Source of the DNA: Candidatus Latescibacterota bacterium
Lineage (GTDB): Bacteria > Latescibacterota > UBA2968 > UBA8231
Length of the DNA stretch: 64,000 nucleotides
Reading direction: 5' to 3'
Assembly: GCA_965203175.1 (NCBI GenBank)
Contig: OZ241867.1
Coordinates: 4,224,001 to 4,288,000, forward strand
Of this stretch, positions 14,278 through 46,021 are shown one piece after another. Made by a program: the position numbers and the translations under genes. The notes below the pieces were generated by a model that saw only the letters and a list, made by a program, of their open reading frames with translations, did no database searches and had not been told where the DNA came from. Positions within the stretch are counted from its first letter, which is position 1. Every line of letters starts with the position of its first letter.

Positions 14278-15288
14278 ATGGTCAATATCGGCATTGTCGG
14301 CATCGGTTTTATGGGCATGACCCACTACAAGGCTATGGCCCAAGTCAACGGGGGCCAAGTTGCGGCTATCGTCTCCCGCGACCCCAAAAAGCGCGCGGGG
14401 GATTGGCGCGACATTCAGGGCAATTTCGGCGACAGCGGCGGGGAGCAGGACTTGTCGGGAATACGCTGCTATGAAACGTTGGACGAGTTGCTCGCCGATG
14501 GGGAGATCGACTTGGTGGATATATGCCTGCCGACGAACATGCACGTCGAGACTAGCATCCGCGCTTTATCTGCGGGCAAGCACGTGCTATTGGAAAAGCC
14601 CATTGCCTTGGCCTTGGACGACGCTGATCGGATCGTGGCGGCGGCCGAGGAACACCAGCGGCAGTTTATGGTTGCCCATGTGCTGCGGTATTTCCCCGAG
14701 TTCCGGCTGATCAAACAGCTCGTCGACGATGCGGAACACGGCCCCGTGCTCGCCGCTCACTTCAAGCGGATTATCTCGCGCCCGGCGTGGTGGGCACCAG
14801 AAGACTTAGAGCGCACTGGCGGCCCAGCAATCGACCTGCACATCCACGACGCGGACTTCGTGCAGTTTTTGTTTGGGATGCCCACTGAGGTTAGCGCGCA
14901 AGGATACATTGGCCGGGGCGAGACGGTCGAGTACATCAACGTCCACTACCAGTACGACGGCCCAATGGCCATCAGCGCCGAAGGTGGCTGGTTGGCGCAA
15001 CAGGGCTGTCCTTTTGAGCACGGTTATGACGTGTACTTTGAGGAGGCCACGCTCAAGTTCAACTCGTCTTGGGGCGAGCCGCCGCAACTGTTGACCAAGG
15101 ACGGCGAGGTCAGTACGCCATCACTGTCGGGTGAGGACGGCTTTGTCGGCGAGTTGCAGGAAGCAGTGGATGCGATCGCGCAGGGCAAGGCGTCGCAGGA
15201 GATAGGCGGTCAGAGCGCGCGGAACTCGCTGCTGTTGTGTTTGAAGGGAATTGAGTCGGTGCAGACGGGGGAGAAGGTGGCGATATAG
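14278..15288 (+). CDS. Gfo/Idh/MocA family oxidoreductase
   Basis: IGIVGIGFMG, AGKHVLLEKP, DLHIHDAD motifs. Confidence 0.92.
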   Translation: MVNIGIVGIGFMGMTHYKAMAQVNGGQVAAIVSRDPKKRAGDWRDIQGNFGDSGGEQDLSGIRCYETLDELLADGEIDLVDICLPTNMHVETSIRALSAGKHVLLEKPIALALDDADRIVAAAEEHQRQFMVAHVLRYFPEFRLIKQLVDDAEHGPVLAAHFKRIISRPAWWAPEDLERTGGPAIDLHIHDADFVQFLFGMPTEVSAQGYIGRGETVEYINVHYQYDGPMAISAEGGWLAQQGCPFEHGYDVYFEEATLKFNSSWGEPPQLLTKDGEVSTPSLSGEDGFVGELQEAVDAIAQGKASQEIGGQSARNSLLLCLKGIESVQTGEKVAI

Positions 15289-16155
15289 CTAATGCCCTTC
15301 GTGCGTGTCTATCCCATGGAGGGCGCTGGATTCAACGTAATACAGTATGTAGGCGAGGCCGATCCCTACGAGGAGGGACACGATGAGCTTGCCGCGATCG
15401 TGGCTGTGGAAATGGATCTCCGGTAGCAAGTCGCTCAAGGCAATGCACAGGAACGCGCCCGCCGCAAAAGCCAGCACATAGCCAACTGTTGCCCCTCCTT
15501 CTAGGTCAAGCAATTCCACACCTTCAAAGCTCGCTATAGCCACCACAGGGCACAGGATGGCAAAGCCGACATTGGCCAATGTCCGGGCGCGCTGGCTGTG
15601 ACCGGCGGACTTCATCATGCCGATAATGGAGTACGCATCGAGCGGCTTGTGCAGTAGAATGGCGAGGAACACCCCCAGGCCCGCCAATGCAACTCCGTCT
15701 TCATGCGACGGCCCTATCTTCATGATGGTACCCAGCGCGATTCCTTCGGTCACGGTGTGCACCCCTAGGCCTATGGCAACGCCGAACAAACTCCGCGAAT
15801 GGACGACACTGTGGCCGTGATCATGGTCATCGTCATCGTACAGATCGCTCGCCTCACTGCTGAAATCGTGCTGATGAAAGTGAAAGATGCGCAACAAGAA
15901 AATCATCAGGACCATGCCGAGCACCATCCATCCCACGGCTCTTTCTACAATGCCTGTCCCGGAGATGCGCTCGAGACTGTGGGGTAGCAGGTGAAACATG
16001 GCGACGCCGAGGATGAAGCCGGCCACAAGACTCATCACGATCTGAGTGCGCGTGTGCGTCATAGTACCCAAAGCCGCCAGCTTCCCGCCGAGAAAAGAAG
16101 CGGCAAAGATAGCGGCTGAGTAGGCCAACAAAACCAGTAGAGCGGTTGCATCCAT
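15289..16155 (-). CDS. ZIP family divalent metal transporter
   Basis: Eight TM segments, His-rich loop, HTVTEG and HKPLD metal-site motifs, DLLPE. Confidence 0.9.
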   Translation of the reverse strand: MDATALLVLLAYSAAIFAASFLGGKLAALGTMTHTRTQIVMSLVAGFILGVAMFHLLPHSLERISGTGIVERAVGWMVLGMVLMIFLLRIFHFHQHDFSSEASDLYDDDDHDHGHSVVHSRSLFGVAIGLGVHTVTEGIALGTIMKIGPSHEDGVALAGLGVFLAILLHKPLDAYSIIGMMKSAGHSQRARTLANVGFAILCPVVAIASFEGVELLDLEGGATVGYVLAFAAGAFLCIALSDLLPEIHFHSHDRGKLIVSLLVGIGLAYILYYVESSALHGIDTHEGH

Positions 16156-16281
16156 GATGACTATAATCGGAAGCTAGCTGGGTTGCCGGAGAGCGCTGTT
16201 TTCCGCAACGTCATTGCCTTTTCCTTAGCACTGTCGGGTTGTGCATTGGGAAGAGGATGCCCAGCAAGCAACGACTGCGAA

Positions 16282-17535
16282 TCAGGTGCTTTCACACCTA
16301 TCGCCCGTACTGGACCGGAAGCGAAGATTGAGCAGCATATCCTCGTAACCACGGCGCAGGGCACCGGCGCGAAAGCGCCAGACGATCAGGGCGATGAGGA
16401 GCAAAGCGCTGCCCCATTGCAGGAACTGAATGGCCGGCGCATGGGAGGCGCCGAGGTTGACGGAAATCGCCAGACCAGCCGCGAGAAGCAGCGCGTCGAT
16501 GGCAATGCCGAGGACGACCGTAACCGCAATAACAGCGGCGACGTAGATGGATGCGAAGCGGGAGCCAAACTGGCTGACGATGATCGCGATGGTCCCCGTG
16601 TTGGTGGCCGGTCCAGTCATCAGAAAAATCAGCGCCGCGCCGGGACTGACCCCCTTGGCAACTAGCGCGGCGGCGATTGGAGTACTGGCGGAGGCGCAGA
16701 TATAAAGAGGGATGCCGATCAGCACCATGACCGGATAGGACAGCCAGCGGGCATACTCGTGCGCCATCAGATCGCTCGGAATCGCCAGAAAGAGCACACC
16801 GCCCAGCACGACCCCCACCAACAGCGCAAAGAGAATGTCGTCGGCGATCTCAATGAAGCCATAGCGCAAGATGTGCCTGACCAGCTTTTTGAAGTCGAGA
16901 CCTTGATTGTCGGTGGGGACTTCTGCCGCAGAAGAATTACCGGTGGATTGTCGGCCAGCGATTCCCTTCAACCAATTGACTAGTAAAATCTTCAGTTGCG
17001 AGGGACTGACGTAGCAATCATCCCTACCAGCTATGAGGGATTGGTGATTATCGTGCTCACAGTCATGGCAGTGAGCCGGGCCGCTCGCCTCGGCTTCATC
17101 TCGGTCGTCTCTTATCAGTCCGATGCAAAAGATACCGGCGACGACTGCGGTGATGAAGCTGATGACGGGCCGAACAATGGCAACGATGGGTCCGAAAAAG
17201 GCGTTGGTTACTAGGATCGAGTCTGCGCCTGTCTCCGGCGCGGTGATCAAGAAAGACATGCAGGACGAACGGGACGCCCCCTTGTTACGCATCTCGGCAA
17301 CCACAGGGACGACCGAACAACTGCACAGCGGCACGGGTACGCCGATGGCCGAACTCATGGTCACGGATTTTAGACTATCGTCGCGGAGCCAGCGGAGAAT
17401 GGCCTGACGGGAGATGAATACATGGATCAGGCCGGAAAGAAACAGCCCTAGCAACAGCATGGGCGCTAGCAACAAGAAGGAGGACCAGAGGAAGGCAAAA
17501 AAACTGGCCGATATCCCAAAAAATTCAAAGGTCAT
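16282..17535 (-). CDS. SO_0444/ArsP-like (DUF318) metal permease, copy 1
   Basis: PLCSCSVVP and PLYICASASTP motifs, His/Cys-rich loop; ATG 17535. Confidence 0.85.
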   Translation of the reverse strand: MTFEFFGISASFFAFLWSSFLLLAPMLLLGLFLSGLIHVFISRQAILRWLRDDSLKSVTMSSAIGVPVPLCSCSVVPVVAEMRNKGASRSSCMSFLITAPETGADSILVTNAFFGPIVAIVRPVISFITAVVAGIFCIGLIRDDRDEAEASGPAHCHDCEHDNHQSLIAGRDDCYVSPSQLKILLVNWLKGIAGRQSTGNSSAAEVPTDNQGLDFKKLVRHILRYGFIEIADDILFALLVGVVLGGVLFLAIPSDLMAHEYARWLSYPVMVLIGIPLYICASASTPIAAALVAKGVSPGAALIFLMTGPATNTGTIAIIVSQFGSRFASIYVAAVIAVTVVLGIAIDALLLAAGLAISVNLGASHAPAIQFLQWGSALLLIALIVWRFRAGALRRGYEDMLLNLRFRSSTGDRCEST

Positions 17536-17604
17536 TGTGATAAGAAGTAGACATTGACTAGAAAGGGCAAGCCTCCGATCAGAGTAGCTTCTGGGGGTTT
17601 GAAG

Positions 17605-17633
17605 TTGCGTTTTTTCTGCCGGACTACTAAAAT
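17605..17633 (+). promoter_or_regulatory. Sigma70-type promoter of leader ORF copy 1
   Basis: TTGCGT-N17-TAAAAT, 8 nt before ATG 17642 (near-leaderless); conserved in copy 2. Confidence 0.6.
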
Positions 17634-17641
17634 CAGAGGTC

Positions 17642-17956
17642 ATGCTAACGCGCAAAGCGGACCTCTCGACGTGCTCGGCATCCTCGCTGGCCCTGCTGGT
17701 GCTGACCGTGCTCTTTGCGGCTGTAAGCTGCGGCCTACCCTTCAGCCACCAGCTTTTCCACGAGAGCCACGTCGAGCCTGGGAACTGCCCGGCTTACCTG
17801 TTACAGAGCGGTCTATCGCTCCTTTTTGGGGGCTTGGCGCTCGTGCTCATAGCGCTGAGTGTCTCTGAGCCAAGTCCGTCCGCTCCGCGCACAATACCGT
17901 TACCCCTTTTTACCCCTCGCTTTACTCATCTCAACCGAGGCCCGCCCCGGTGCTAG
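17642..17956 (+). CDS. DUF2946/CruR-like leader protein with C-terminal RGPP, copy 1 (CPAY variant)
   Basis: N-terminal hydrophobic helix, HQLFHESH, CPAY, second hydrophobic stretch, Pro-rich tail, HLNRGPPRC end. Confidence 0.7.
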   Translation: MLTRKADLSTCSASSLALLVLTVLFAAVSCGLPFSHQLFHESHVEPGNCPAYLLQSGLSLLFGGLALVLIALSVSEPSPSAPRTIPLPLFTPRFTHLNRGPPRC

Positions 17957-18091
17957 TGCATCCACGCTGGTAAACCGCCTCAGTGCGTGGGTGTCTCTCT
18001 CCAGATTCAATTCGCGTACCATTAACCTCCCGTCTTGTGCGCAAGCCTAGGAAAGCGTGCATGGACGACCAAACCATTGGAGACTAGCACC

Positions 18092-18598
18092 ATGTTTAAA
18101 AGAAGTATGTCTGCGTTGAGCATTTTCGCCTTGGCTCTCTTTGTTGCGAGCTGCGGCGACGACGACAATCCCGTCGATCCTGACCTCCATGATGAACACG
18201 CTGAGGCCATCGGCCTGATTATACGCGATAGCGGCGCTGAAATCGTCCGCGTTGAAAGCGGTCAGGTGACCGGCGAGATTGAAGTCGGTCACGGCAAGGA
18301 AACCGCTCTGCTTTCCGTGCGCTTTATCGCCGAAGACGGCGATCTCTTCACCCCAGACGAAGACGAGGATTTTTCTCTCGGTTGGGAAATTGCCGACGAG
18401 AGCATCGCCGAAGTAGAGCATCATGCCGAGGACGGCGCTTGGGCTTTTCACATCCTCGGCTTAGAGGAAGGCGAGACTACTATCCGCATCAAAATCAACC
18501 ACGAAGGCCACGCCGATTTCGTCTCGCCGGAGATTGAAATCCACGTCAGCGAGGACGGACCCGGCGAGGAACATGATGATCACGATGACGAAGGGTAA
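18092..18598 (+). CDS. His/acid-rich lipoprotein, copy 1
   Basis: Lipobox LFVASC, DLHDEHAE and EEHDDHDDEG ends, beta-rich body. Confidence 0.8.
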   Translation: MFKRSMSALSIFALALFVASCGDDDNPVDPDLHDEHAEAIGLIIRDSGAEIVRVESGQVTGEIEVGHGKETALLSVRFIAEDGDLFTPDEDEDFSLGWEIADESIAEVEHHAEDGAWAFHILGLEEGETTIRIKINHEGHADFVSPEIEIHVSEDGPGEEHDDHDDEG

Positions 18599-18626
18599 AG
18601 CGGTTAGACCTGCATAGGTAGAGGTG

Positions 18627-18659
18627 ACGCGGGACCGGACGCAAGCACCGGTCCCGCGT
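18627..18659 (+). terminator. GC-rich hairpin after lipoprotein copy 1
   Basis: ACGCGGGACCGG...CCGGTCCCGCGT, no U-tract; repeated at about 19760-19789. Confidence 0.45.
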
Positions 18660-18705
18660 ACTTATGTCAAGCTTAATTGGATAGCCGACAGACAAAAGGT
18701 TGAAG

Positions 18706-18734
18706 TTGCGTTTTTTTGCCAGATCACTTAAAAT
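18706..18734 (+). promoter_or_regulatory. Sigma70-type promoter of leader ORF copy 2
   Basis: TTGCGT-N17-TAAAAT, 8 nt before ATG 18743. Confidence 0.6.
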
Positions 18735-18742
18735 CAAAAGTT

Positions 18743-19075
18743 ATGCTAAGGCGCAAAGCGGACATCTCGATAGGCTCGGCGTCCGCGCTGGCCCTGCTGG
18801 CGCTGACCGTGCTCTTTGCGGCTGTAAGCTGCGGCCTACCCTTCGGCCACCAGCTTTGCCACGAGAGCCACGAGAGCCACGAGAGCCACGTCGAGCCTGA
18901 GAACTGTCCGGCTTGCCTGTTGCAGAGCAGCCTATCGCTCCTTTTTGGGGGCTTGGCGCTCGCGGTCGTGGCGCTGAATGCCTTAGAGCCAAATCCGTCC
19001 GCTCTGCGCACAGTACCTTTACCTCTTTTTTCTCCTCGCTTTACCCACCTCAACCGAGGCCCGCCCCGGTGCTAG
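18743..19075 (+). CDS. DUF2946/CruR-like leader protein with CxxC and RGPP, copy 2
   Basis: HQLCHESHESHESH, CPAC, C-terminal HLNRGPPRC. Confidence 0.75.
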   Translation: MLRRKADISIGSASALALLALTVLFAAVSCGLPFGHQLCHESHESHESHVEPENCPACLLQSSLSLLFGGLALAVVALNALEPNPSALRTVPLPLFSPRFTHLNRGPPRC

Positions 19076-19212
19076 TGCATCCACGCTGGTAAATCACCTC
19101 AGTGCGTGGGTGTCTCTCTCCAGATCCAATTCGCGTACCATTAAATTCCCGTTCTGCGCGCAACGTCTAGGGAAAGTGCGCGTGGACGGTCAAACCATTG
19201 GAGACTAGCACC

Positions 19213-19719
19213 ATGTTTAAAAGAAGTATGTCTGCGTTGAGCATTTTCGCCTTGGCTCTGTTTATGGCTAGCTGCGGCGACGACGACAATCCCGTCGATC
19301 CTGACCTCCATGATGAACATGCCGAGGCTATCGGCCTAGTTATACGCGATAGCGGCACTGAAATCGTCCGCGTTGAAAGCGGTCAGGTGACCGGCGAGAT
19401 TGAAGTCGGTCACGGCAAGGAAACCGCCCTGCTTTCCGTGCGCTTTATCGCCGAAGACGGCGATCTCTTCACCCCAGACGAAGACGAGGATTTTTCTCTC
19501 GGTTGGGAAATTGCCGACGAGAGCATCGCCGAAGTAGAGCATCATGCCGAGGACGGCGCTTGGGCTTTTCACATCCTCGGCTTAGAGGAAGGCGAGACTA
19601 CTATCCGCATCAAAATCAACCACGAAGGCCACGCCGATTTCGTCTCGCCGGAGATTGAAATCCACGTCAGTGAGGACGGACCCGGTGAGGAACACGATGA
19701 TCACGATGACGAAGGGTAA
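19213..19719 (+). CDS. His/acid-rich lipoprotein, copy 2
   Basis: Lipobox LFMASC; nearly identical to copy 1. Confidence 0.8.
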   Translation: MFKRSMSALSIFALALFMASCGDDDNPVDPDLHDEHAEAIGLVIRDSGTEIVRVESGQVTGEIEVGHGKETALLSVRFIAEDGDLFTPDEDEDFSLGWEIADESIAEVEHHAEDGAWAFHILGLEEGETTIRIKINHEGHADFVSPEIEIHVSEDGPGEEHDDHDDEG

Positions 19720-19807
19720 AGTGGTTAGATCTGCTGCGGCCTTCATAGGTAAAAGCGACGCGGGACCGGACGCAAACTCCGGTCCCGTGCACTTATGTCA
19801 AGGCCAA

Positions 19808-22048
19808 TTGAATAGCCGACAGATAAAAAACACAGGCCGCAGGCTACTTTGGAAACTCACATCCATAATCGGCCTAGCAGTCGGTCCCGTTTGGGGCGAC
19901 CAGACTGGCGCTCTAGCCGGGCACGTGATCGACGCCGAAAGCGGCCAACCCGTCGGTTGGACTACCGTCGTCATTGAGGGGCTCGAACGGGCGCGGATGA
20001 GCGACGCCGAGGGGTACTTCTTCTTCGCCAACGTACCCGCCGGTGCGCACGTCTTGCAAAGCCTACACGTCGGCTACCAAGAGGCCCACTTTAAGGTGAG
20101 GGTCGTCGCGGGGGATACCACCCATGTCGATCTAGCTATCGGCTACGAGTCCCTGCAGGTAGAGGGGATTCTCATCGAAGGCGAATACACGCGCCCTGTT
20201 TCTCCACTCCAAGCACCCGAAGTTGTCTTCAGCGGCAGCAAGCTGCGGCAGAATTTGAGCCGCACCATCGCCGAGACCATTGACTACGAGCCGGGCATTG
20301 CCCAGCGCTCAATGGGGCCAGCGCCCGCGCGTCCAGTCCTGCGCGGGCTAGGCGGCGACCGCTTGCTGATGATCGAAGACGGCGAGCGCACCGGCGATTT
20401 GTCTGCCACCTCCTCGGACCACGCCGTGGCCATCGAGCCGATGACTACCGAGCGCATTGAGGTCGTGCGCGGCCCTCGCACCTTGCTCTACGGGTCCAAT
20501 GCCTTGGCCGGGGTTGTCAATGTGGTGCGGGGATACGTGCCCTCTGAGCAGCCCGATGGTTTGGGGGGATCTGTGACGTATCAAGGAGAGAGCGTCAACC
20601 GAGGTTTGTCTGGCGGCCTGACTCTCGAACAGCCGCTCGGCCCACTGGCGCTGCGCTTCGACAGCAGTTTGCGCAATGCCGACGATATTGCCACGCCGCG
20701 TGGGGTACTCGCCAATACGAACATCCGCACGGGCAATGCCTCAGTCGGCCTGAGTCTGGTTCGTCCTTGGGGGCACGTAGGCGCGTCCGGTAGCTTGTAC
20801 GACTCCGACTATGGCATCCCTCCCGATGCAGAGAGCGGCCACCCGGACGGCGTATCCATTGATCTCCAGCGCCAGCACCTCGAAGGGCGCGGCGAAATCC
20901 TCACCGGGCCGGATTGGCTCCAGCGCCTAGAATTGCACCACGCGTTTTCGCGCTATCAGCACGGCGAATACGAAGCTAGTGGCAACTTGGGGCTGGAGTA
21001 CGGGGTGCTCACGCACAACAGCGGCGCGCTGGCCCACCTAGATCGCATGGGGCCTTTTGCCAACGGCGTGACTGGCTTGTGGTTCGAGTACCGCAACTAT
21101 GCCGCGGCCGGGCTCAACTATACGCCGCCGGCCGAGGAATACGCCGGTGCTTTGTTCGCGTACCAGGAGTGGGAGCATGGGCCTTGGGCGGCCAATGCGG
21201 CTTGGCGCGTTGACGCCCGCCGCGTCGAGCCGCGCGAGGAGCGCTATTCGCGCCGGGTCGGCAGCATCCAGACGCGCGACTTTGCCGGGATGTCTGCCGG
21301 TTTGTCCAATCACTATCGCGCCAGTTCGACTTTGACGTTGGGCTCGACCTTGATGCGCACCTTTCGCGCTCCTGGCATCGAAGAGCTGTTTTCCGAAGGA
21401 CCGCATCTGGCCGCCTATTCGTACGAGGTGGGCAACGGCTCCCTCGACAGCGAACGCGGCCTAGGACTGGAGCTGTTCGCCGACTACCACCGCGAAGAAG
21501 GCCATGTACACGTGGCCGTCTTCCGCAACGCGATCAATGGGTTCATTTTTTTCAAGAATAGCGGCGAGCGCAGTCTGCGGCGCGCCGATCTTTTTCTCTA
21601 TCAGACTCTGGGAGAGCGCGTCCTCATGCACGGTGCCGAAGTTACCTTCGATTGGCATCTGGCGGAGCCTTGGAAAGTGGCCGGTACCCTCAGCTATGTG
21701 CGCGGCCGGCTCACTGATCTCGACGACGAACCTCTGCCGCGGCTGCCACCTCTGCAAGGGCACTTGGCCCTGACTTGCGAACCTACTGAGGCGCTGAGTG
21801 CGACTATTGACGTGCGCTTGGCTGCGGAACAGGACCAGATCGGCGAGTTTGAAGAGCCTACAGAAGGCTACGCAGTGCTGGATCTTTCGAGCCAGTACTA
21901 CGCGCAGTGGGGGGGCCGTCTGCACACCTTCGCCCTGACCTTGGAAAACGCCACTGACGCGGTGTACCGCAACCACCTCAACCGCGTCAAAGATATCCTG
22001 CCCGAGCCAGGCCGCAATCTGCGCCTGCTGCACAAGATATTCTTCTGA
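19808..22048 (+). CDS. TonB-dependent receptor (ZnuD-like), copy 1
   Basis: N-terminal carboxypeptidase-regulatory-like domain, RPVLRGLGGDR, SSDHAV, IEVVRGPRTLLYGSNA plug, PGRN..FF end; start uncertain (TTG 19808). Confidence 0.9.
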   Translation: MNSRQIKNTGRRLLWKLTSIIGLAVGPVWGDQTGALAGHVIDAESGQPVGWTTVVIEGLERARMSDAEGYFFFANVPAGAHVLQSLHVGYQEAHFKVRVVAGDTTHVDLAIGYESLQVEGILIEGEYTRPVSPLQAPEVVFSGSKLRQNLSRTIAETIDYEPGIAQRSMGPAPARPVLRGLGGDRLLMIEDGERTGDLSATSSDHAVAIEPMTTERIEVVRGPRTLLYGSNALAGVVNVVRGYVPSEQPDGLGGSVTYQGESVNRGLSGGLTLEQPLGPLALRFDSSLRNADDIATPRGVLANTNIRTGNASVGLSLVRPWGHVGASGSLYDSDYGIPPDAESGHPDGVSIDLQRQHLEGRGEILTGPDWLQRLELHHAFSRYQHGEYEASGNLGLEYGVLTHNSGALAHLDRMGPFANGVTGLWFEYRNYAAAGLNYTPPAEEYAGALFAYQEWEHGPWAANAAWRVDARRVEPREERYSRRVGSIQTRDFAGMSAGLSNHYRASSTLTLGSTLMRTFRAPGIEELFSEGPHLAAYSYEVGNGSLDSERGLGLELFADYHREEGHVHVAVFRNAINGFIFFKNSGERSLRRADLFLYQTLGERVLMHGAEVTFDWHLAEPWKVAGTLSYVRGRLTDLDDEPLPRLPPLQGHLALTCEPTEALSATIDVRLAAEQDQIGEFEEPTEGYAVLDLSSQYYAQWGGRLHTFALTLENATDAVYRNHLNRVKDILPEPGRNLRLLHKIFF

Positions 22049-38669: not shown

Positions 38670-38701
38670 ATAATGATAATCCGTTATCATTATTTGGGCA
38701 A
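38670..38701 (-). promoter_or_regulatory. Promoter with Fur-family-like operator B
   Basis: Perfect ATAATGATAA-TCCG-TTATCATTAT inverted repeat (38670-38693); TTGCCC-N17-TATCAT on the minus strand. Confidence 0.8.
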
Positions 38702-38793: not shown

Positions 38794-39174
38794 TCACTTG
38801 TCCGCGCTGCAATCGCGGCATTGTCCGTACAGCGTGATCTCGTGCCCTTCGAGCTCGAAGCCCGGCGGCGCCAGCTGCGCGATACCCTCGGCACACCCGT
38901 GGATGTCGAAGGCTTCGTCGCACTCGCGACAGAGAAAATGGTGATGATGACCCCGGTCGGTCGGCTCGTAGCGCACATCATTGACGCCCAGATCCACGGC
39001 CCGCACTTCACCGGCGTCTTGCAGGCGCCTGAGCTGCCGATAGACCGTTGCAATGCCCAGCGTCGGCACTATGGGGGACGCCAAGTCGAGGATTTCCAGG
39101 GGGCGAAGTGGGCCGGGGGCGTCGCGAATAACCCGCACGATGGCGCTGCGTTGGCTGGTGCGTCTGTTGCTCAT
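38794..39174 (-). CDS. Fur family regulator (Zur-like)
   Basis: TSQRSAI, GIATVYR, HHHHFLCREC, GQCRDC. Confidence 0.9.
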   Translation of the reverse strand: MSNRRTSQRSAIVRVIRDAPGPLRPLEILDLASPIVPTLGIATVYRQLRRLQDAGEVRAVDLGVNDVRYEPTDRGHHHHFLCRECDEAFDIHGCAEGIAQLAPPGFELEGHEITLYGQCRDCSADK

Positions 39175-39226: not shown

Positions 39227-40108
39227 TTACGCTTTTTGGCTGAGCGCTTGAATCAGCGTTCCCAAATTGTGCTCGAACATCTTCTCGTAGCTGGTCGCCG
39301 GGCTGCCGCGTTCCGAGAGCGCGTCGGAGAACAGTCGGCCACCGATCTGAATTCCGGTTTCGTGCGCGATCTGCTGAATCAGGGATGGGCTGGTGATGTT
39401 CTCAACGAACAGTGCGCCGGCGCCGACGGCCTTCAAGTGATCGATCAGCTTGGCGAGGTCTCGTGCCGACGGCTCGGCATCGGTGTCGATCCCGACCGGG
39501 GCCAGAAATGTGAGCCCATAGGCTGCCTCCAGATAGCCAAAGGCGTCGTGGGCGGTCACGACCGTACGCTGGCCGGCGGGCAGTCTTTTGAGTTGGCCGA
39601 GCGCGCGGTCGTGTAATGCCTTTAGTCTCGCGGTGTAGGCGCGGGCATTGGCCTTGTAGGCTGCCGCGTTTTGCGGATCGGTTTCCGCCATGCCATCCGC
39701 AATATTGGCGACATACTTCATGCCGTTTGTGAGCGAGTTCCAGGCGTGCGGGTCGATTGCGCCGTCAACCTTCAAAGGCGCTATGCCATCCGTCGCGACG
39801 AACACTTTGGCCTGGGTAGCGGATGTCTCGATCAGGGTTTGCGACCAGGTCTCGAAGCCCAGACCGTTGACAAAGATCACCTCGGCGTTGGTCACTGCTT
39901 TGGCGTCGGCCGCGTTGGGGGTGTAAACGTGCGCATCCGCGTCCGGGCCGACAATGGTTGTCACCTCGGCTAAATCGCCGGTGACCTGGCGCACCATATC
40001 GCCGAGGATGGAGAAGCTGGCGACGACCTTGATTCTGTCCTGGGCGGCCGCCGGGATTGAGGTCAACGCCAGGCCCGCTACCAGCAGTGCGCTGAAGAGT
40101 TGTTTCAT
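39227..40108 (-). CDS. Metal ABC transporter solute-binding protein (AztC/ZnuA cluster A-I)
   Basis: VASFSILGD, DAHVYTP, DPHAW, HDAFGY, SDALS. Confidence 0.92.
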   Translation of the reverse strand: MKQLFSALLVAGLALTSIPAAAQDRIKVVASFSILGDMVRQVTGDLAEVTTIVGPDADAHVYTPNAADAKAVTNAEVIFVNGLGFETWSQTLIETSATQAKVFVATDGIAPLKVDGAIDPHAWNSLTNGMKYVANIADGMAETDPQNAAAYKANARAYTARLKALHDRALGQLKRLPAGQRTVVTAHDAFGYLEAAYGLTFLAPVGIDTDAEPSARDLAKLIDHLKAVGAGALFVENITSPSLIQQIAHETGIQIGGRLFSDALSERGSPATSYEKMFEHNLGTLIQALSQKA

Positions 40109-40120
40109 GGTTTTTTGCTC

Positions 40121-40999
40121 CTACATTGAGTTTCTGTTGATGGTCAGAGGTTCGCGGCGGTACGGGTTGAGGCGTGCGCCGACCTGAAATCCTTGCGGTG
40201 CGAAGATCAGGCTGAAAAAGAAAAAGACCGCCGCAACCAGCACGATTGCGGGACCTGAAGGCACGTCCGACAAATAGAACGAAACGATCAGCCCGATCCA
40301 GCCGCTCAGCAGCGCGAATATGAAGGTAACGATCAAATAGCCGGTGATTGTCGAGACCCAATAACGCGCCGCCGTCGCCGGCAGGATCATCAGCCCGACC
40401 GCCATCAGCGTGCCGAGCGCCTTGAAGGCGCCCAACAGATTGAGCACGACCAGAAACATGAACCAGTGGGCCACGAGGCCTGGGTGCTTGGACTGGCTCT
40501 CATGGAAGACCGGATCGATTGTACTGATGATCAGCGGCCTGATGATCAGCGCGAAGCTCACCAATGTGATTGTAGCCGTCATCCCGATCAGCAGGAGGCT
40601 TTCGTCGTTGATGCCGAGGATCGAACCGAACAGGAAACTCTTCAGCGGCACCGCCGAGCCGGCGGCGGACAGGATGAAGATGCCGAGGGCGAGGGCGGTC
40701 AGGTAGAGCGACGCCAGACTCGCATCCTCGCGGATGATTGTCATACGGGCGAGCAGGCTGGTCAGCGCGGCGACGGTGATACCGGCGGTCAACCCGCCAA
40801 CGATCATGGATCCCACCGACAGACCGGCAATCACGAAAGCGATGACGATTCCCGGCACAATAGCGTGAGCCATCGCCTCGCCGGCGAGCGACAGACGCCT
40901 GAGCACTAGGAATGCTCCGACCGGGGCGACGGAGAAACTCAACACCGTCGTCGCGGTCAGTGCCCGGACCATGAACGCGTAGTCGAGCCACTCAAACAT
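40121..40999 (-). CDS. Metal ABC transporter permease (AztB/ZnuB-like)
   Basis: LRRLSLAGEAMAHAIVPG, FLFGSIL, PSGPAIVL; ATG 40999. Confidence 0.92.
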   Translation of the reverse strand: MFEWLDYAFMVRALTATTVLSFSVAPVGAFLVLRRLSLAGEAMAHAIVPGIVIAFVIAGLSVGSMIVGGLTAGITVAALTSLLARMTIIREDASLASLYLTALALGIFILSAAGSAVPLKSFLFGSILGINDESLLLIGMTATITLVSFALIIRPLIISTIDPVFHESQSKHPGLVAHWFMFLVVLNLLGAFKALGTLMAVGLMILPATAARYWVSTITGYLIVTFIFALLSGWIGLIVSFYLSDVPSGPAIVLVAAVFFFFSLIFAPQGFQVGARLNPYRREPLTINRNSM

Positions 41000-41753
41000 C
41001 GTCTGCTTTCGATTGCGAGTACATGTTTTCGATCCAGGCGGCCTGACTTTGCGACAGGTACCGGTGAACGACCAGATTGTCGGGCGTAAGCGTTTCTTTC
41101 GGGGCACCGAAAAGCGCGCGGCCATCTCCCAGGAGAAGCGCTGAGCCGCAATGTTGTAGAACGGCGGAAAGGTCGTGCAGAACGAGGATGATGGTGCGTC
41201 CTTCCGCGGCCCAGTGATCGATCAGCGTCAGCAGAGCCGCTTCCGTTGTCTGGTCGACGGCCGTAAACGGCTCATCCAATAGGATCAGCGGCGCATCCTG
41301 AACCATGGTCCGGGCAAATAGCGCCCGTTGCAGCTGACCCGCGGATAGTTTGTGCAAGGGCATATCGGCGATCTCGGCGGTGCCTGTGCGCTCGAGCGCG
41401 CACCCGATCCGAGCCCGGCACTCGCTATCGATGCGGCCGAGAAACCCCAAGTTGGGCCAAGCACCCATTGCCGCTAGGTCGCGGACCCGGATGGGAAAGC
41501 GGCTGTCGAACTCGGTCCTTTGGCCTAGATAAGCAATTGTCGGTGGCCGCCCGATGGGCCAGTTGAGCGTACCGGCAAGCGGCGGCAAGGTGCCCAACAG
41601 TGTTTTGATCAGGGTCGATTTTCCCGATCCGTTGTGACCGACAACAGCAAGCACATCGCCGAGCGCAAGGTTGAACGCGACGTCTTCAGCGACGGTCTCG
41701 GTCCCATAGCCGAGCGAGAGTCCAGTTGCCGAAAGGAGCATTGGATTCGCCAT
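40992..41753 (-). CDS. Metal ABC transporter ATP-binding protein (AztA/ZnuC-like)
   Basis: GHNGSGKST, LSAGQLQR, LLDEPF, VLHDL. Confidence 0.92.
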   Translation of the reverse strand: MANPMLLSATGLSLGYGTETVAEDVAFNLALGDVLAVVGHNGSGKSTLIKTLLGTLPPLAGTLNWPIGRPPTIAYLGQRTEFDSRFPIRVRDLAAMGAWPNLGFLGRIDSECRARIGCALERTGTAEIADMPLHKLSAGQLQRALFARTMVQDAPLILLDEPFTAVDQTTEAALLTLIDHWAAEGRTIILVLHDLSAVLQHCGSALLLGDGRALFGAPKETLTPDNLVVHRYLSQSQAAWIENMYSQSKADDV

Positions 41754-41768
41754 CGGCCTCTGTCGGAC

Positions 41769-41906
41769 TCAGATGCCGAGGGTCGCGATGATGATGACCC
41801 AGAGTCCTGCGCAGGCAACGCTGACTGCAATCAGATAATGGAGCGTACTGGCAACTGTAAGATCGAATCCCGCCAAGCTTTGAGTCTGTAAGTTTTGCGA
41901 GCTCAT
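41769..41906 (-). CDS. 45-aa single-TM small protein heading the ABC operon (below the ORF-track cutoff)
   Basis: MSSQNLQTQSLAGFDLTVASTLHYLIAVSVACAGLWVIIIATLGI, translated by hand. Confidence 0.65.
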   Translation of the reverse strand: MSSQNLQTQSLAGFDLTVASTLHYLIAVSVACAGLWVIIIATLGI

Positions 41907-43205
41907 AAAAACCTCGCGTGAGACCGTCGCCTTTAGGCGATGGAGGGATAGCGATTCAATCGGCGAGAGGCGGCTTGCCCGCCTTTAGCCGGTTGAAATC
42001 TGTTGTAGAAAGGTTGACACGGCTTCTTGTAGAGATTGTATTTATCTCTATGAAGAAGGTGATACAGATACAGCTTAAGCCTACCCCTGAGCAAGCGGCT
42101 GCGCTGGAGAAGACGATGCGTCGATTCAACGAGGCGTGTAACTGGCTGGCTGTTCGCGCTTTTGAGCGCAAGCTGGCCAATCGCTTTGGCTTGCACAAGC
42201 TGTATTACTACGAACTGCGTGAACGCTTTGGCCTGCCTGCTCAGATGGCCTGTCTGGTATCGGCCAATGTATCGGCCGCCTACAAGCGGGACACCGCCAA
42301 GCCAGTGTCCTTTCGTCCCTTGGCGTCGATGCCCTATGACCGGCATCTGCTGCGCTACCAAGACCTGACTACGGTCTCCATGTCCACGTTGGATGGGCGC
42401 ATCAGCCTGCCGATGGTCATGGGCGCCTATCAGGCCGAGCAGTTTGCCCAAGTCAAATACTACGCCGAACTGGTGCATCGCAAAGACGGCCAGTGGTTCC
42501 TTATGGCTGTGGTCGAGACCGATGACCTGCCGCCGCTGGATACCGACGACTTCCTCGGCGTTGATCTGGGGGTCGAGAACCTTGCCACGGACTCCGACGG
42601 ACAACAGCACTCGGGCGAGGACGTAGAGCAGGTGCGCGTCAAGCACCAGACGCTCAAGCAAGCCCTTCAATCGGCGGCTGATTTGGCGGCTAATGCTCGG
42701 AAGCGCAAGCGCATCCGTAAGAAGCTCAAACGTATCGGCGATAGAGAAGCACGCTTTCGCCGCAATACCAACCACTGCCTCTCTAAGCGAATCGTTGCGA
42801 AGGCTAAAGGCACTCTGAGAGGGATAGCCCTCGAAGACCTCAAGGGCATCCGACAGAGAACCCGGTTTCGCAAGCCGCAACGTAACCGCATGGATAGCTG
42901 GGGATTCGACCAGCTTCGCCAGTTTGTCCGCTACAAGGCGGAGCAAGCCGGCGTACCGCTCAAGATTGTCGATCCCAAGCATACCTCTCAGATGTGTTCG
43001 CAGTGTGAACATGTCGAAGCGGCTAATCGCTCCTCTCAGTCTCGGTTTCGTTGTAAGCAGTGTGGATATGCCGTCCATGCCGATTACAACGCCGCCCGGA
43101 ACATCCGGGCCAGGGCTCTTGTCAGCGAGCCTATAGTTTCAAGCTACTCCGCTGCGGCGGGGTAGCTTAGGGACAAGCCGCTCGCTTTAGCCGGCGGTGG
43201 TTGAC
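41907..43205 (+). mobile_element. IS200/IS605-family tnpB-only (IS1341-like) element
   Basis: Left subterminal hairpin 41924-41943, right hairpin 43177-43198 ending GGTTGAC, no TSD, inserted 3' of TCAT. Confidence 0.82.
42050..43165 (+). CDS. tnpB: RNA-guided endonuclease TnpB
   Basis: RuvC residues in GVDLG, LEDL and ADYNAARNI; zinc finger CSQC/CKQC. Confidence 0.95.
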   Translation: MKKVIQIQLKPTPEQAAALEKTMRRFNEACNWLAVRAFERKLANRFGLHKLYYYELRERFGLPAQMACLVSANVSAAYKRDTAKPVSFRPLASMPYDRHLLRYQDLTTVSMSTLDGRISLPMVMGAYQAEQFAQVKYYAELVHRKDGQWFLMAVVETDDLPPLDTDDFLGVDLGVENLATDSDGQQHSGEDVEQVRVKHQTLKQALQSAADLAANARKRKRIRKKLKRIGDREARFRRNTNHCLSKRIVAKAKGTLRGIALEDLKGIRQRTRFRKPQRNRMDSWGFDQLRQFVRYKAEQAGVPLKIVDPKHTSQMCSQCEHVEAANRSSQSRFRCKQCGYAVHADYNAARNIRARALVSEPIVSSYSAAAG

Positions 43206-43328
43206 TATTCTCTCTTTCAGGGGTATGGCCACTGGGTTCCCTGTTATGCATTCCGCCTTCGGCCTCAGGACACCAAGCTACTGCCCCATAGCAACCCTCT
43301 CCCCATCGCTCAACCTGGACTGACCTCC

Positions 43329-43358
43329 AATGATATTCTATTATCATTAAGTAGTCAA
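43329..43358 (-). promoter_or_regulatory. Promoter with Fur-family-like operator C (native ABC-operon promoter)
   Basis: AATGATAT-TCTA-TTATCATT (43329-43348); TTGACT-N17-TATCAT on the minus strand. Confidence 0.75.
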
Positions 43359-43414
43359 CCCAACTCGGGCGGATAGGAATGTTTCTGTTGCCCTCTAGAT
43401 CACCATGCGCCTCA

Positions 43415-43757
43415 AAGCCAGCCGATGCGTACTCCGTTATCAGCATGATGAAGTCCGCCGGTCACAGCCAGCGCGCCCGGACATGGACCAATGTCGGCTT
43501 TGCCCTTCTGTGCCCGGTAGTGGCCCTGGCGAGCTTTGGGGGGTGGAATTGCTTGGCCCGGAAGAAGGGGCGGTGATCGGCTATGTGCTGTCCTTTGCGG
43601 CGGGCGCGTTTTTGTGCATTGCCTTGAGCGACCTGTTACCAGAGATTCATTTCCACAGCCACGATCGCGGCAAGCTCATCGTGTCCCTCCTCGTGGGAAT
43701 CAGTCTCGCCTATGTACTTTGAATCCAGCACCCTTTATGGCGCACGAAGGGCATTAG
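43415..43757 (+). pseudogene. 3' fragment of a ZIP transporter, frameshifted
   Basis: Inverted copy of about 15289-15648 with a 1-nt deletion in a G run near 43540. Confidence 0.85.
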
Positions 43758-43822
43758 CTATATCGCTACCTTCTGCCCGGTCTGCACCGACTCAATTTTC
43801 TTCAAACTGGCCCCGACTGATT

Positions 43823-46021
43823 TTGAGGTTCGTACCTGTACTCGGCCTAGCAGTAAGTTCCGCTTGGGGCGACCAGACTGGCACTCTAGCTGGCCACGTG
43901 ATCGACGCCGAAAGCGGTCAACCCGTCGGTTGGACTACCATCGTCATTGAGGGGCTCGAACGAGCGCGGATGAGCGATGCCGAGGGGTACTTCTTCTTCG
44001 CCAACGTACCCGCTGGCGCGCACGTCTTGCAAAGCCTACACGTCGGCTACCGCGAGGAGCGCTTTAAGGTCGAGATCGTCGCGGGAGATACCACTCATGT
44101 CGATCTGGTTATCGGCCACGAGTCCCTGCATGTAGATGAGATCCTCGTCGAAGGCGAACGCAAGATCCCTGCTTCTCCACTCCAAGCACCCGAAGTCGTC
44201 TTCAGCGGCAGCAAGCTGCGGCAGAATTTGAGCCGCACCATCGCCGAGACCATCGCCTACGAGCCGGGCATTGCCCAGCGCTCGATGGGGCCCGCGCCTG
44301 CGCGTCCGGTGCTGCGCGGGCTGGGCGGCGACCGCTTGCTGATGGTCGAAGACGGCGAGCGCACCGGCGATTTGTCTGCTACCTCTTCGGACCACGCCGT
44401 AGCCATTGAGCCAATGACCACCGAGCGCATCGAGGTCGTGCGCGGCCCTCGCACCTTGCTCTACGGCTCCAATGCCTTGGCCGGGGTCGTCAACGTGGTG
44501 CGCGGGTACGTGCCCTCCGAGCGACCCGACGGCTTGGGGGGAGCTGTGACGTATCAGGGGGAGAGCGTCAACCGAGGTTTGTCCGGCGGCCTGACCCTCG
44601 AACAGGCACTCGGCCCACTGGCCCTGCGCTTCGACAGTAGTCTGCGCAATGCCGACGATATTGCCACGCCGCGTGGAGTACTCACCAATACGGATATCCG
44701 CACGGGCAATGCTTCAGTCGGCCTGAGTCTGGTTCGTCCTTGGGGGCATGTAGGCGCGTCCGGCAGCTTATACGACTCCGACTACGGCATCCCTCCCGAC
44801 CCAGAGGGCGGCCATCCGCACGGCGTATCCATTGATCTCCAACGCCAGCATCTCGAAGGGCGCGGCGAAATCCTCACCGGGCCGGACTGGCTCCAGCGCT
44901 TAGAACTGCACCACTCGTTTTCGCGCTATCAGCACGGCGAATTCGAAGCTAGTGGCGACTTGGGGATGGAGTTCGGCGTGCTCACGCACAACAGCGGTGT
45001 GCTGGCCCACTTGGATCGCATGGGGCCTTTTGAAAACGGTGCGATTGGCTTGTGGTACGAGTACCGCAACTATGCCGCGGCCGGGCTTAACTTCACGCCG
45101 CCGGCCGAGGAATATGCCGGTGCTCTTTTCACGTACCAGGAGTGGGAGCATGGGCCTTGGGCGGCCAATGCGGCCTTGCGCGTTGATGCCCGCCGCGTCG
45201 AGCCAAGAGAAGAGCGCGACGCGCGCAGGGTCGGCAGCATCCAGACGCGCGATTTTGCCGGTATGTCTGCCGGTCTGTCCAACCACTATCGCGCCAACTC
45301 GACCTTGACGCTGGGTACGACCTTGATGCGCACTTTTCGCGCTCCTGGTATCGAAGAACTATTCTCCGAAGGGCCGCATTTGGCTGCCTATTCGTACGAG
45401 GTGGGCAATGGTGCTCTCGGCAGCGAACGTGGCTTGGGACTGGAGCTGTTCGCCGACTACCACCGCGAAGAAGGCCATGTACACGTGGCCGTCTTCCGCA
45501 ATGCGATCAATGGGTTCATTTTTCCCAAGAACAGCGGTGAGCACAGCTTGCGGCGCGCCGATCTCTTTCTCTATCGGACTGTGGGGGAGCGCGTCCTCAT
45601 GCACGGCGCCGAAGCCAACTTTGATTGGCATCTGGTGGAGCCTTGGAAGGTGGCTGGCACCCTCAGCTATGTGCGCGGTCGTCTCATTGATCTCAACGAC
45701 GAACCCCTGCCGCGTCTGCCGCCCCTACAAGGGCATCTGGGCCTGACTTGCGAACCCACTGAGGCGCTGAGTGCGACCATTGACGTGCGCTTGGCTGCGG
45801 AGCAGAACCGGATCGGCGAGTTTGAAGAGCCTACGGAGGGCTACGCAGTGCTGGATTTTTCAGGTCAGTACTATGCGGAGTGGGGGGGACGGTTGCACAC
45901 CTTCTCCTTGACCTTGGAAAACGCCACTGACGCGGTGTACCGCAATCACCTCAACCGCGTCAAAGAGATCCTGCCCGAGCCAGGCCGCAATCTGCGCCTG
46001 CTGCACAAGATATTCTTCTGA
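43823..46021 (+). CDS. TonB-dependent receptor (ZnuD-like), copy 2
   Basis: Highly similar to 19808-22048; likely TTG start giving MRFVPVLGLAVSSAWG; start uncertain. Confidence 0.88.
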   Translation: MRFVPVLGLAVSSAWGDQTGTLAGHVIDAESGQPVGWTTIVIEGLERARMSDAEGYFFFANVPAGAHVLQSLHVGYREERFKVEIVAGDTTHVDLVIGHESLHVDEILVEGERKIPASPLQAPEVVFSGSKLRQNLSRTIAETIAYEPGIAQRSMGPAPARPVLRGLGGDRLLMVEDGERTGDLSATSSDHAVAIEPMTTERIEVVRGPRTLLYGSNALAGVVNVVRGYVPSERPDGLGGAVTYQGESVNRGLSGGLTLEQALGPLALRFDSSLRNADDIATPRGVLTNTDIRTGNASVGLSLVRPWGHVGASGSLYDSDYGIPPDPEGGHPHGVSIDLQRQHLEGRGEILTGPDWLQRLELHHSFSRYQHGEFEASGDLGMEFGVLTHNSGVLAHLDRMGPFENGAIGLWYEYRNYAAAGLNFTPPAEEYAGALFTYQEWEHGPWAANAALRVDARRVEPREERDARRVGSIQTRDFAGMSAGLSNHYRANSTLTLGTTLMRTFRAPGIEELFSEGPHLAAYSYEVGNGALGSERGLGLELFADYHREEGHVHVAVFRNAINGFIFPKNSGEHSLRRADLFLYRTVGERVLMHGAEANFDWHLVEPWKVAGTLSYVRGRLIDLNDEPLPRLPPLQGHLGLTCEPTEALSATIDVRLAAEQNRIGEFEEPTEGYAVLDFSGQYYAEWGGRLHTFSLTLENATDAVYRNHLNRVKEILPEPGRNLRLLHKIFF

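Follow-up and report, generated by a model that had tools for sequence, protein, structure and literature searches.

In a 64,000-nt window of contig OZ241867.1 from a Candidatus Latescibacterota bacterium (the window is the whole stretch of DNA that was analyzed, and coordinates are positions in it unless another sequence is named), a transposable element encoding a TnpB protein lies between an ATG codon and the sequence that natively precedes it. The element spans 41907-43205 (1,299 bp), and comparison with empty sites sets its boundaries exactly to the base. On the plus strand, the left junction reads ...gcgagctcat (41906) followed by AAAAACCTCGCG..., also printed as ...GCGAGCTCAT to 41906 and AAAAACCTCGCGTGAGACC... 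from 41907; the right junction reads ...GGTGGTTGAC (43205) followed by tattctctctttcagggg, also printed as ...GGCGGTGGTTGAC to 43205 and TATTCTCTCTTTCAGGGG from 43206. Among 31 genomes of the same class searched at the DNA level, four of the same genus (G003, G010, G012, and G014) have 41000-41906 directly beside 43206-43391, with 94-99% identity in the flanks and a single right-flank match at 85%. The empty site in these related genomes reads ...GAGCTCAT/TATTCTCTC... (a slash marks the junction throughout). The junction letters were read in G003, G014, and G012 as ...gcgagctcat/tattctctctttc..., also given as gcgagctcat/tattctctctttcagggg, with one-base variants; the fourth relative, G010, contributes contiguous coordinates only. 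Since the flanks are contiguous in the relatives, the boundaries at 41907 and 43205 are exact, no target duplication was made, and the CAT left of the element is host sequence. Indeed, the four letters TCAT (41903-41906, plus strand) are kept in the empty sites. They constitute the host target motif and presumed target-adjacent motif (TAM) of TnpB, and they are the complement of the ATGA that heads an open reading frame (ORF) on the minus strand.

The only long sense ORF in the element is tnpB (42050-43165, plus strand; 371 aa), which matches the Pfam families PF01385 OrfB_IS605 (E = 1.6e-10) and PF07282 Cas12f1-like_TNB (E = 4e-23), as well as solved TnpB/Cas12f chains in the PDB (E = 2e-28) with the DLG, EDL, and ADYNAARN motifs aligned. 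The catalytic motifs read GVDLGV, ALEDL, and HADYNAARN, and residues D172, E262, and D345 are invariant across six copies of the family in this genome; judged by these motifs, the RuvC D-E-D triad is intact and the protein would be a TnpB of the nuclease-active type. Upstream of tnpB lies the 143-nt left end (LE; 41907-42049, plus strand), which begins AAAAACCTCGCG and ends just ahead of the tnpB ATG. Homology to other copies stops at 41907, in agreement with the empty sites. The LE contains a subterminal hairpin (41924-41943, plus strand) with an 8-bp stem and a TTTA loop, to which TnpA presumably binds. The minus-strand RNA folds into this hairpin as well, with TAA in the loop, and the same loop recurs with compensating stems in other copies. 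A possible tnpB promoter, consisting of TTGACA and an A/T-rich -10 region near the ATG (42014-42044, plus strand), was picked out by eye; the promoter scan did not flag it here and flagged the homologous position in two other copies. Downstream of tnpB, the right end (RE; 43166-43205, plus strand) holds an imperfect hairpin at approximately 43178-43197 around the TTTA loop that it has in common with the LE hairpin, and it ends GGTTGAC, again in agreement with the empty sites. The last 150 nt of tnpB together with the RE fold at -91 kcal/mol (z = -4.34; 0 of 200 shuffles as good). With 16 nt of flank (43020-43221, plus strand), this structured 3' region, which matched no Rfam family, is a candidate for the omega RNA scaffold and guide, an assignment made on the model of other TnpB systems.

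The element carries no tnpA and no terminal inverted repeats. Instead, it has subterminal imperfect hairpins at both ends, whose stems differ among copies yet still pair, and insertion 3' of a short motif without target duplication was read from empty sites for three copies in this genome (A, B, and E, of which A is the one in the window). It is therefore, in the features analyzed, a TnpB-only element of the IS200/IS605 type (IS605B or IS1341-like), as a first-pass annotation made from the letters alone had proposed for an insertion 3' of TCAT. Two other assignments were considered and rejected: a TldR-like repressor, because the RuvC triad and both transposon ends are intact, and an IStron, because no group I intron was found (Rfam gave no match at E up to 1 in 41700-43500 on either strand).

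On the minus strand, the element replaces the native leader of the ORF that it abuts. With the element present, the junction reads GCGAGGTTTTT/ATGAGC, with GAGG five bases ahead of the ATG; the native junction reads GAAAGAGAGAATA/ATGAGC. The GAGG motif (41912-41915, minus strand) resembles a Shine-Dalgarno (SD) sequence, is supplied by the element, and forms a duplex of -7.1 kcal/mol with the 3' end of the genome's 16S rRNA. The first-pass reading that the LE places an SD ahead of the ATG is thus confirmed in the letters, as GAGG followed by TTTTT. The ORF itself (41769-41906, minus strand; ATG at 41906-41904) has 45 codons, a hydrophobic C-terminal half, and doubtful coding status. It has no Pfam match and only five near-identical homologs, among which several of the changes are non-conservative. 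Downstream of it lies a znuABC-like operon (39227-41753, minus strand), in which Pfam identifies an ABC ATPase (40992-41753), an ABC-3 permease (40121-41125), and a ZnuA-type binding protein (39227-40108), and a gene for a FUR-family regulator follows (38794-39174, minus strand; PF01475, E = 8e-18). On the far side of the element, a native promoter-like site, TTGACT-17-TATCAT (43330-43358, minus strand; 10 of 12 matches in the promoter scan), is now approximately 1.3-1.4 kb from the ATG because of the insertion. Its -10 hexamer overlaps a palindromic operator-like site, ATGATA-N6-TATCAT (43330-43347), which occurs twice in the window (the other match is at 38673) where 0.01 would be expected. 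It is a reasonable inference that a transcript from the displaced promoter would have to run antisense through tnpB.

In the source genome, blastn and tblastn detect six members of this family, with protein identities of 70-100%, along with six distant TnpBs. All six family copies terminate in GTTGAC, and in five of them CAT stands left of the LE and an opposite-strand ORF begins at exactly that ATG: 45 aa for copy A, 168 aa (a protein with a UVR motif) for copy B, 177 aa for copy C, 562 aa for copy D, and 440 aa (a solute-binding protein of lipoprotein type) for copy E. The sixth, copy F, has CCCT in place of CAT and sits at the 3' end of a gene on its own strand. Each of the 31 genus genomes matches both flanks of copies B and E, at coordinates 0-8 nt apart in the many that were compared, and the empty junctions, read in two and four relatives respectively, are ...catttcat/gtcgc... 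and ...gctttcat/cgcgttatcc.... Three insertions of one genome (A, B, and E) are hereby proven to lie between an ATG and the native upstream sequence. Copy C (L002, G000:C1, approximately 353.7-355.0 kb) presents a different picture, as it interrupts a DNA methylase gene, at an ATG inside the gene and in its frame; with the element removed, the frame is open for 135 codons upstream, and the C-terminal 177 aa could be made separately from the LE signals.

To place these copies in a wider set, we gathered 24 related loci and searched 31 genomes of the genus and 168 genomes of the phylum, 33 of which gave a match. Junctions were placed by alignment of each locus with 24 reference left ends, after which the position was snapped to the closest YAY triplet, no more than 4 nt away; this was used instead of a hairpin-based search for left junctions and a snap to the homology boundary, both of which proved too noisy. 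A scan of metagenome contigs gave one distant locus (L112), which was left out of the analysis. Merging re-fetched and orthologous sites left 67 sites, from which 11 with a degenerate or missing LE were dropped (F, L010, L021, L024, L028, L065, L084, L086, L096, L026, and L027). The remainder comprises 15 sites of a sister subfamily with a TCAC flank and 41 sites grouped by the YCAT motif (40 flanked by YCAT and one by TAT). At 24 of the 41 independent YCAT sites, an opposite-strand ORF of at least 100 aa begins at the junction ATG, while 11 would be expected by chance, given that 26.9% of the 87,592 YCAT sites in this genome start such an ORF (P = 2e-5). Under a stricter definition, which allows an upstream open extension of at most 40 codons after in silico removal of the element, the figure is 16 of 40 against a background of 7.1% (P = 5e-9). 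The first-pass annotation had suggested examining other copies for a kept end and for enrichment at gene starts, and both were found. Of the 15 TCAC sites, two at most are at starts, which fits with GTG being a rarer start codon.

Domain searches indicate that most of these ATGs are true N-termini. Among the 24 long ORFs, 14 match a Pfam family model from profile position 1-5, either near residue 1 or after a signal peptide: HisD (residues 22-428 against profile positions 3-410 of 411), Ddl (residues 5-125 against positions 1-121), HisG, an aminotransferase, an amidohydrolase, a DUF3417 protein with phosphorylase (glucan phosphorylase N-domain), a STAS protein, a sulfatase, two Peripla_BP_4 proteins, an SBP, two PhyH proteins, and an HTH protein. 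One match is internal (a methylase, profile positions 162-217 of 221), and the other nine ORFs have domains further in or no match; four of these nine have evident signal or lipoprotein N-termini, judged by eye from their sequences. The hisD gene in G012 and the ddl gene in G114 are the sole copies in genomes that are 94% and 98% complete. As both genes are intact and single-copy, they must still be expressed with the LE of the element as their leader. This occupancy is the strongest indirect support for the idea that the element limits the harm of its own insertion.

The start sites are also, for the most part, junctions within operons. After in silico removal of the element, a long same-strand upstream ORF ends between -60 and +10 nt of the ATG at 17 of 23 start sites, and seven start sites are ATGA overlaps, in which the upstream TGA shares two bases with the ATG. 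Since TCAT is the complement of ATGA, the target motif is also the commonest stop/start overlap of coupled genes. The consequences for the upstream gene can be read directly from the sequence, as the RE gives it a stop within 0-10 codons. At two of the seven ATGA junctions, both occupied by a family with 36-39% TnpB identity, the upstream protein is unchanged (the last codon is altered only at its third base, and a TAA from the RE follows immediately); at three it gains five residues, and at two it gains 10. On both sides of the element, the stops are formed by letters of the hairpins' conserved TTTA loops and of the terminal cleavage motif. For the downstream gene, the LE usually provides an SD-like motif and an A/T spacer, as in the window copy. 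We computed duplex energies between the 3' end of the 16S rRNA of the source genome (GGATCACCTCCTTTCT) and the 20 nt before the ATG. The median was -4.3 kcal/mol for the 41 leaders formed by YCAT-type left ends and -4.7 kcal/mol for the 23 native leaders at start sites, compared with -2.9 kcal/mol for the 15 TCAC-type left ends and -3.0 kcal/mol for 3,000 random 20-mers. Unrelated left ends converge on an SD: GAGGTTTTT/ATG in this genome, and GGAGGTAAA/ATG and GGAGGAAAA/ATG in another genus.

We lean towards the following explanation, which we hold to be somewhat more probable than its competitors taken together. A non-autonomous IS200/IS605 element would have been inserted by single-strand "peel-and-paste" 3' of TCAT, without duplication, and would thereby have parted the ATG of the first ORF in a Fur-family-controlled znuABC-like operon from its native leader and promoter. 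The YCAT target of the lineage coincides with ATGR start codons and ATGA stop/start overlaps, and both ends would act as translation punctuation, the LE by supplying an SD-like purine motif and an A/T spacer, and the RE by supplying a stop to the upstream gene. Host genes stay open, and their expression would persist on transcripts that cross the element in the antisense direction. Insertions of this kind would be tolerated even at single-copy housekeeping genes and would hence accumulate, possibly aided by a preference at the insertion step.

Several observations weigh against this explanation or narrow it. The example in the window is itself the weakest of the set, because its ORF is doubtful: in the relatives with an empty site, the frame continues without a stop as far as a GTG 9 codons upstream, which public gene calls take as the start of a 54-aa protein, such that the ATG at the junction may not be the true start. 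The first-pass statement that the element inserts exactly at a start codon therefore stands for the junction, which is at an ATG, and is less secure for the gene. Its companion claim, that the element brings a replacement ribosome-binding site, fares similarly. In the letters it holds for this copy, but not every left end of the lineage carries an SD. A subfamily that reads GCCGAAATTTCT/ATG lacks it and yet lies on two real starts (L029 and L057), so the SD is either not required or not the point. Moreover, the junction motif GCGAG in the window is predicted to pair with CUCGC of host codons 2-3 (z = -0.69), and this predicted pairing, which would cover both the SD and the AUG, could hinder initiation. 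No sigma-70-like outward promoter was found in the left end of the window copy or of two other copies by a scan for this one promoter type; expression would consequently depend on read-through transcription across 1.3 kb. In the census, 17 of the 41 sites open no ORF that reaches 100 aa, one of the other 24 lies at an internal Met of a methylase, and among tnpA-bearing relatives with the same LE only one of six sites is at a start. The snapping to YAY leans slightly toward CAT, and the P values overstate the enrichment, because the copies are related and the gene models are crude.

The most serious competitor, which we nevertheless regard as rather unlikely, is pure survivorship: the element would insert at any YCAT, intragenic insertions would be purged, and the SD and stops would be by-products of TnpA recognition sequences and hairpin loops. 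In densely packed operons, the ATG(R) of the start codon itself would be almost the only harmless YCAT. Several findings speak for this. The logo of the flanks shows nothing conserved beyond YCAT (at position -4, T in 28 of 38 sites and C in 10 of 38), the 17 of 23 start sites noted above are tight operon junctions, the stops derive from the conserved TTTA loops and the terminal cleavage motif, and the strength of the SD varies widely, down to its absence in the one subfamily that also occupies starts. We computed what selection alone would give under a crude null, in which intragenic insertions are all lost and intergenic and start-codon YCAT sites are tolerated equally. This null places 25% of surviving sites at starts, or 35% if generous, whereas 20-23 of 38 (53-60%) were observed (P = 2e-4 to 3e-6). 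With the generous value of 0.35, P rises to 0.02, which further tempers our preferred explanation. The excess over the null is real but modest, and insertion preference and better survival are not separable in it. Accordingly, of the first-pass proposal of a start-codon-targeting, harm-limiting element, the enrichment at starts and the limitation of harm are retained, while the targeting mechanism is not, given a logo limited to YCAT and a null that already accounts for 25-35%. Apart from the excess itself, three points speak against survivorship as the whole story. Loss of a leader should be worse than an ordinary intergenic insertion unless it is compensated, yet single-copy hisD and ddl carry the element; two unrelated left ends, ...GAGGTTTTT and ...GGAGGTAAA, both place an SD at working distance; and the sister family with the TCAC target has no SD.

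It is improbable, in our estimate, that the machinery actively prefers translation-start regions beyond the 4-nt motif, for example through A/T-rich unstructured single-stranded DNA or a link with transcription or replication. Such a preference would suit copies A, B, and E, each of which is confined to one genome of the 31 and all of which are on an ATG, and also the native leaders at the target sites, which are 57% A+T in a genome of 59% G+C. However, no extended motif is present, the non-start sites have a similar A+T content (54%), and target choice in known IS200/IS605 elements, as described for them, is a matter of 4-5 nt paired with the left end (10.1101/2023.03.14.532601; PMC4810608). 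A test of orientation against GC skew, in which the skew curve was irregular, gave three consistent copies, two inconsistent, and one ambiguous.

As for mobility, two Y1 transposase (PF01797) genes are present elsewhere in the source genome, within elements that resemble the TnpB-only copies in their CCAT/AAAAAATCACCG... junction and in the type of their LE hairpin. The search for tnpA in trans that the first-pass annotation had called for was thereby successful, and mobilization by these two TnpA proteins is plausible. The RE hairpin of the tnpA-bearing elements is that of copy F and of the family at 39% identity; that of copy A differs. Since copies 98% identical to A and B occur at other sites in other genomes, the family has moved recently. 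Across the genus, tnpA was found in only 8 of 31 genomes and is absent from 23, including G010, which has nine TnpB-only copies. Excision was sought in public sequencing runs, of which assembled contigs only were used. One DNA contig (X3) joins 41906 to 43206, with a shorter side of 25 letters, below the 31-letter threshold. In the RNA-library run X17, one contig covers 43206-43423; the 33 loose letters ahead of this stretch correspond to a relative's left flank, so that at best the contig attests the empty form in other samples. A related element at another site is present in contigs from X16, also an RNA-library run. In all, these contigs gave no sign of excision within one population, nor of transcription in this organism, and the stretches that they leave uncovered are uninformative. 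The further first-pass idea of a reversible switch is most improbable, also as a domesticated or host-used one in which TnpA-mediated excision and re-insertion would toggle the zinc-uptake operon. In its favor, the native junction would return to the letter after excision, the genome has two tnpA genes whose elements carry a related left end and hairpins, and the RuvC triad is intact. Against it, the insertion sites are many unrelated genes, unlike those of a dedicated switch, most genomes of the genus lack tnpA, copy A differs from the tnpA-bearing elements in its RE hairpin, and the contigs gave no trace of excision.

We also noted a long frame on the opposite strand of tnpB. In the window, an antisense ORF in register with the tnpB codons (41933-43078, minus strand) ends inside the LE hairpin loop, leaving 26 nt to the host ATG. 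This frame is open for 350-428 codons in most copies of the genus and is also seen in L001-L004, L008, L011, and L061-L071, and in 11 copies its stop lies in the loop of the LE hairpin, 26-28 nt short of the host ATG. Per 371 codons, tnpB contains 1.59 (22 copies) or 0.77 (9 copies) TTA, CTA, and TCA codons, compared with approximately 5.5 expected for genes of this genome at like GC3. There is no conserved antisense start, the position being a His codon that reads CAT in 21 copies and CAC in 14, and an antisense gene is not claimed for this reason. A more ambitious form of our preferred explanation, which we consider unlikely, is that the lineage evolved to inhabit start codons and ATGA overlaps as safe harbors: the ends would supply stop and SD, tnpB would avoid codons that read as stops in antisense, such that the open frame shields read-through transcripts from polarity, imprecise loss would be lethal, and an emptied site would become a target of TnpB.

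Further observations concern the other lineages. A second TnpB family (L061-L071; G003, G010, G013, G032, G035, G042, and G001) is only 36-39% identical at the protein level. Its LE is up to 95% identical to that of the window element over approximately 100 nt, and its RE differs, ending GCGATTAC; left ends appear to have been exchanged between TnpB lineages. In the 5' part of a YbbR-like gene, one and the same host site is occupied by an element with both tnpA and tnpB and a CCAT flank (L043, G000:C1, approximately 330.5 kb), and in G006 (L014/L035/L059) by a TnpB-only family member with a CTAT flank. In the TCAC subfamily (L080-L098, genus g2), the left end begins CTAA. At L082 and L088 it completes the last codon of a same-strand gene and adds an immediate TAA, and at L091 the element lies just after a same-strand stop, a habit that may be the 3'-end counterpart of the start-codon habit.

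With regard to the genomic surroundings, 9 of the 12 TnpB genes and one of the two tnpA genes lie within approximately 90 kb (G000:C1, approximately 316-403 kb), where GC skew is locally negative; this cluster may be an island rich in mobile elements. Within the window, a region with a ZIP fragment and a TonB-dependent receptor is present in a second copy (84-90% identical), at approximately 15239-20127 (G000:C1:4239239-4239648 and 4243866-4244127) versus 43416-44100. For the ZIP-like ORF at 43405-43722, the match to the Zip profile is confined to the final 50 positions of the profile.

IS608 and ISDra2 use target motifs such as TTAC and TTGAT. As a transposon, the element described here is unremarkable: its kind and its target motif are both known already, and its link to start codons is the new part. 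Target sites of the form N/ATGA have been described for TnpB-only IS605B and ISC elements of Microcystis, Halomonas, and Marinobacter, with 46 copies reported in Microcystis aeruginosa NIES-843 (Kapitonov, Makarova and Koonin 2016, PMC4810608). The closest likeness is to IS605B-1_MA of Microcystis aeruginosa, described there as TnpB-only, with subterminal hairpins, without duplication, beside ATGA, and mobilized in trans by Y1 transposases of related elements; its host belongs to a different phylum, and the likeness concerns these features. In the main text of that article, ATGA is treated only as a target motif and the term "start codon" does not occur, whereas over half of the copies in our set have a host start codon or a stop/start overlap as this motif, with ends that appear to restore translation signals. 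The models for IS608, ISDra2, and TnpB homing share the single-strand movement 3' of a 4-5 nt motif that equals the TAM, the scarless excision, and the guide from the right flank (10.1101/2023.03.14.532601). The motifs reported there for TnpB are TTCAT and TTTAT, without orientation bias, and we found no link to start codons there; our copy further differs in lacking tnpA. IStrons, as described (PMC4227781; 10.1101/2023.11.20.567912), are likewise IS200/IS605-type elements that limit the harm of insertion, but they do so by self-splicing from RNA, whereas here there is no intron, and harm would be limited by position and by the SD and stop signals in the ends. TldRs, by the same kind of comparison (PMC10705468), also derive from a TnpB-family gene beside a host gene, with a guide matching its upstream region; they are nuclease-dead and fixed beside particular genes, in contrast to the intact triad and ends and the ever-different neighbors found here. 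The literature searched gave us no account of such elements occupying start codons or stop/start overlaps, nor of translation signals in their ends.

How such elements persist in compact genomes is still discussed, and the self-splicing of IStrons is the known way of limiting harm. If our explanation is correct, a second way would consist of a 4-nt target that coincides with start codons and gene overlaps, combined with translation punctuation in the ends, by which an element could sit inside operons and before single-copy housekeeping genes without killing them. This would matter for annotation, where gene starts abutting the ends of insertion sequences are easily miscalled, and it would bear on the prediction of the polar effects of such insertions. 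Finally, it suggests how transcription from the host could feed back on tnpB and its guide RNA.

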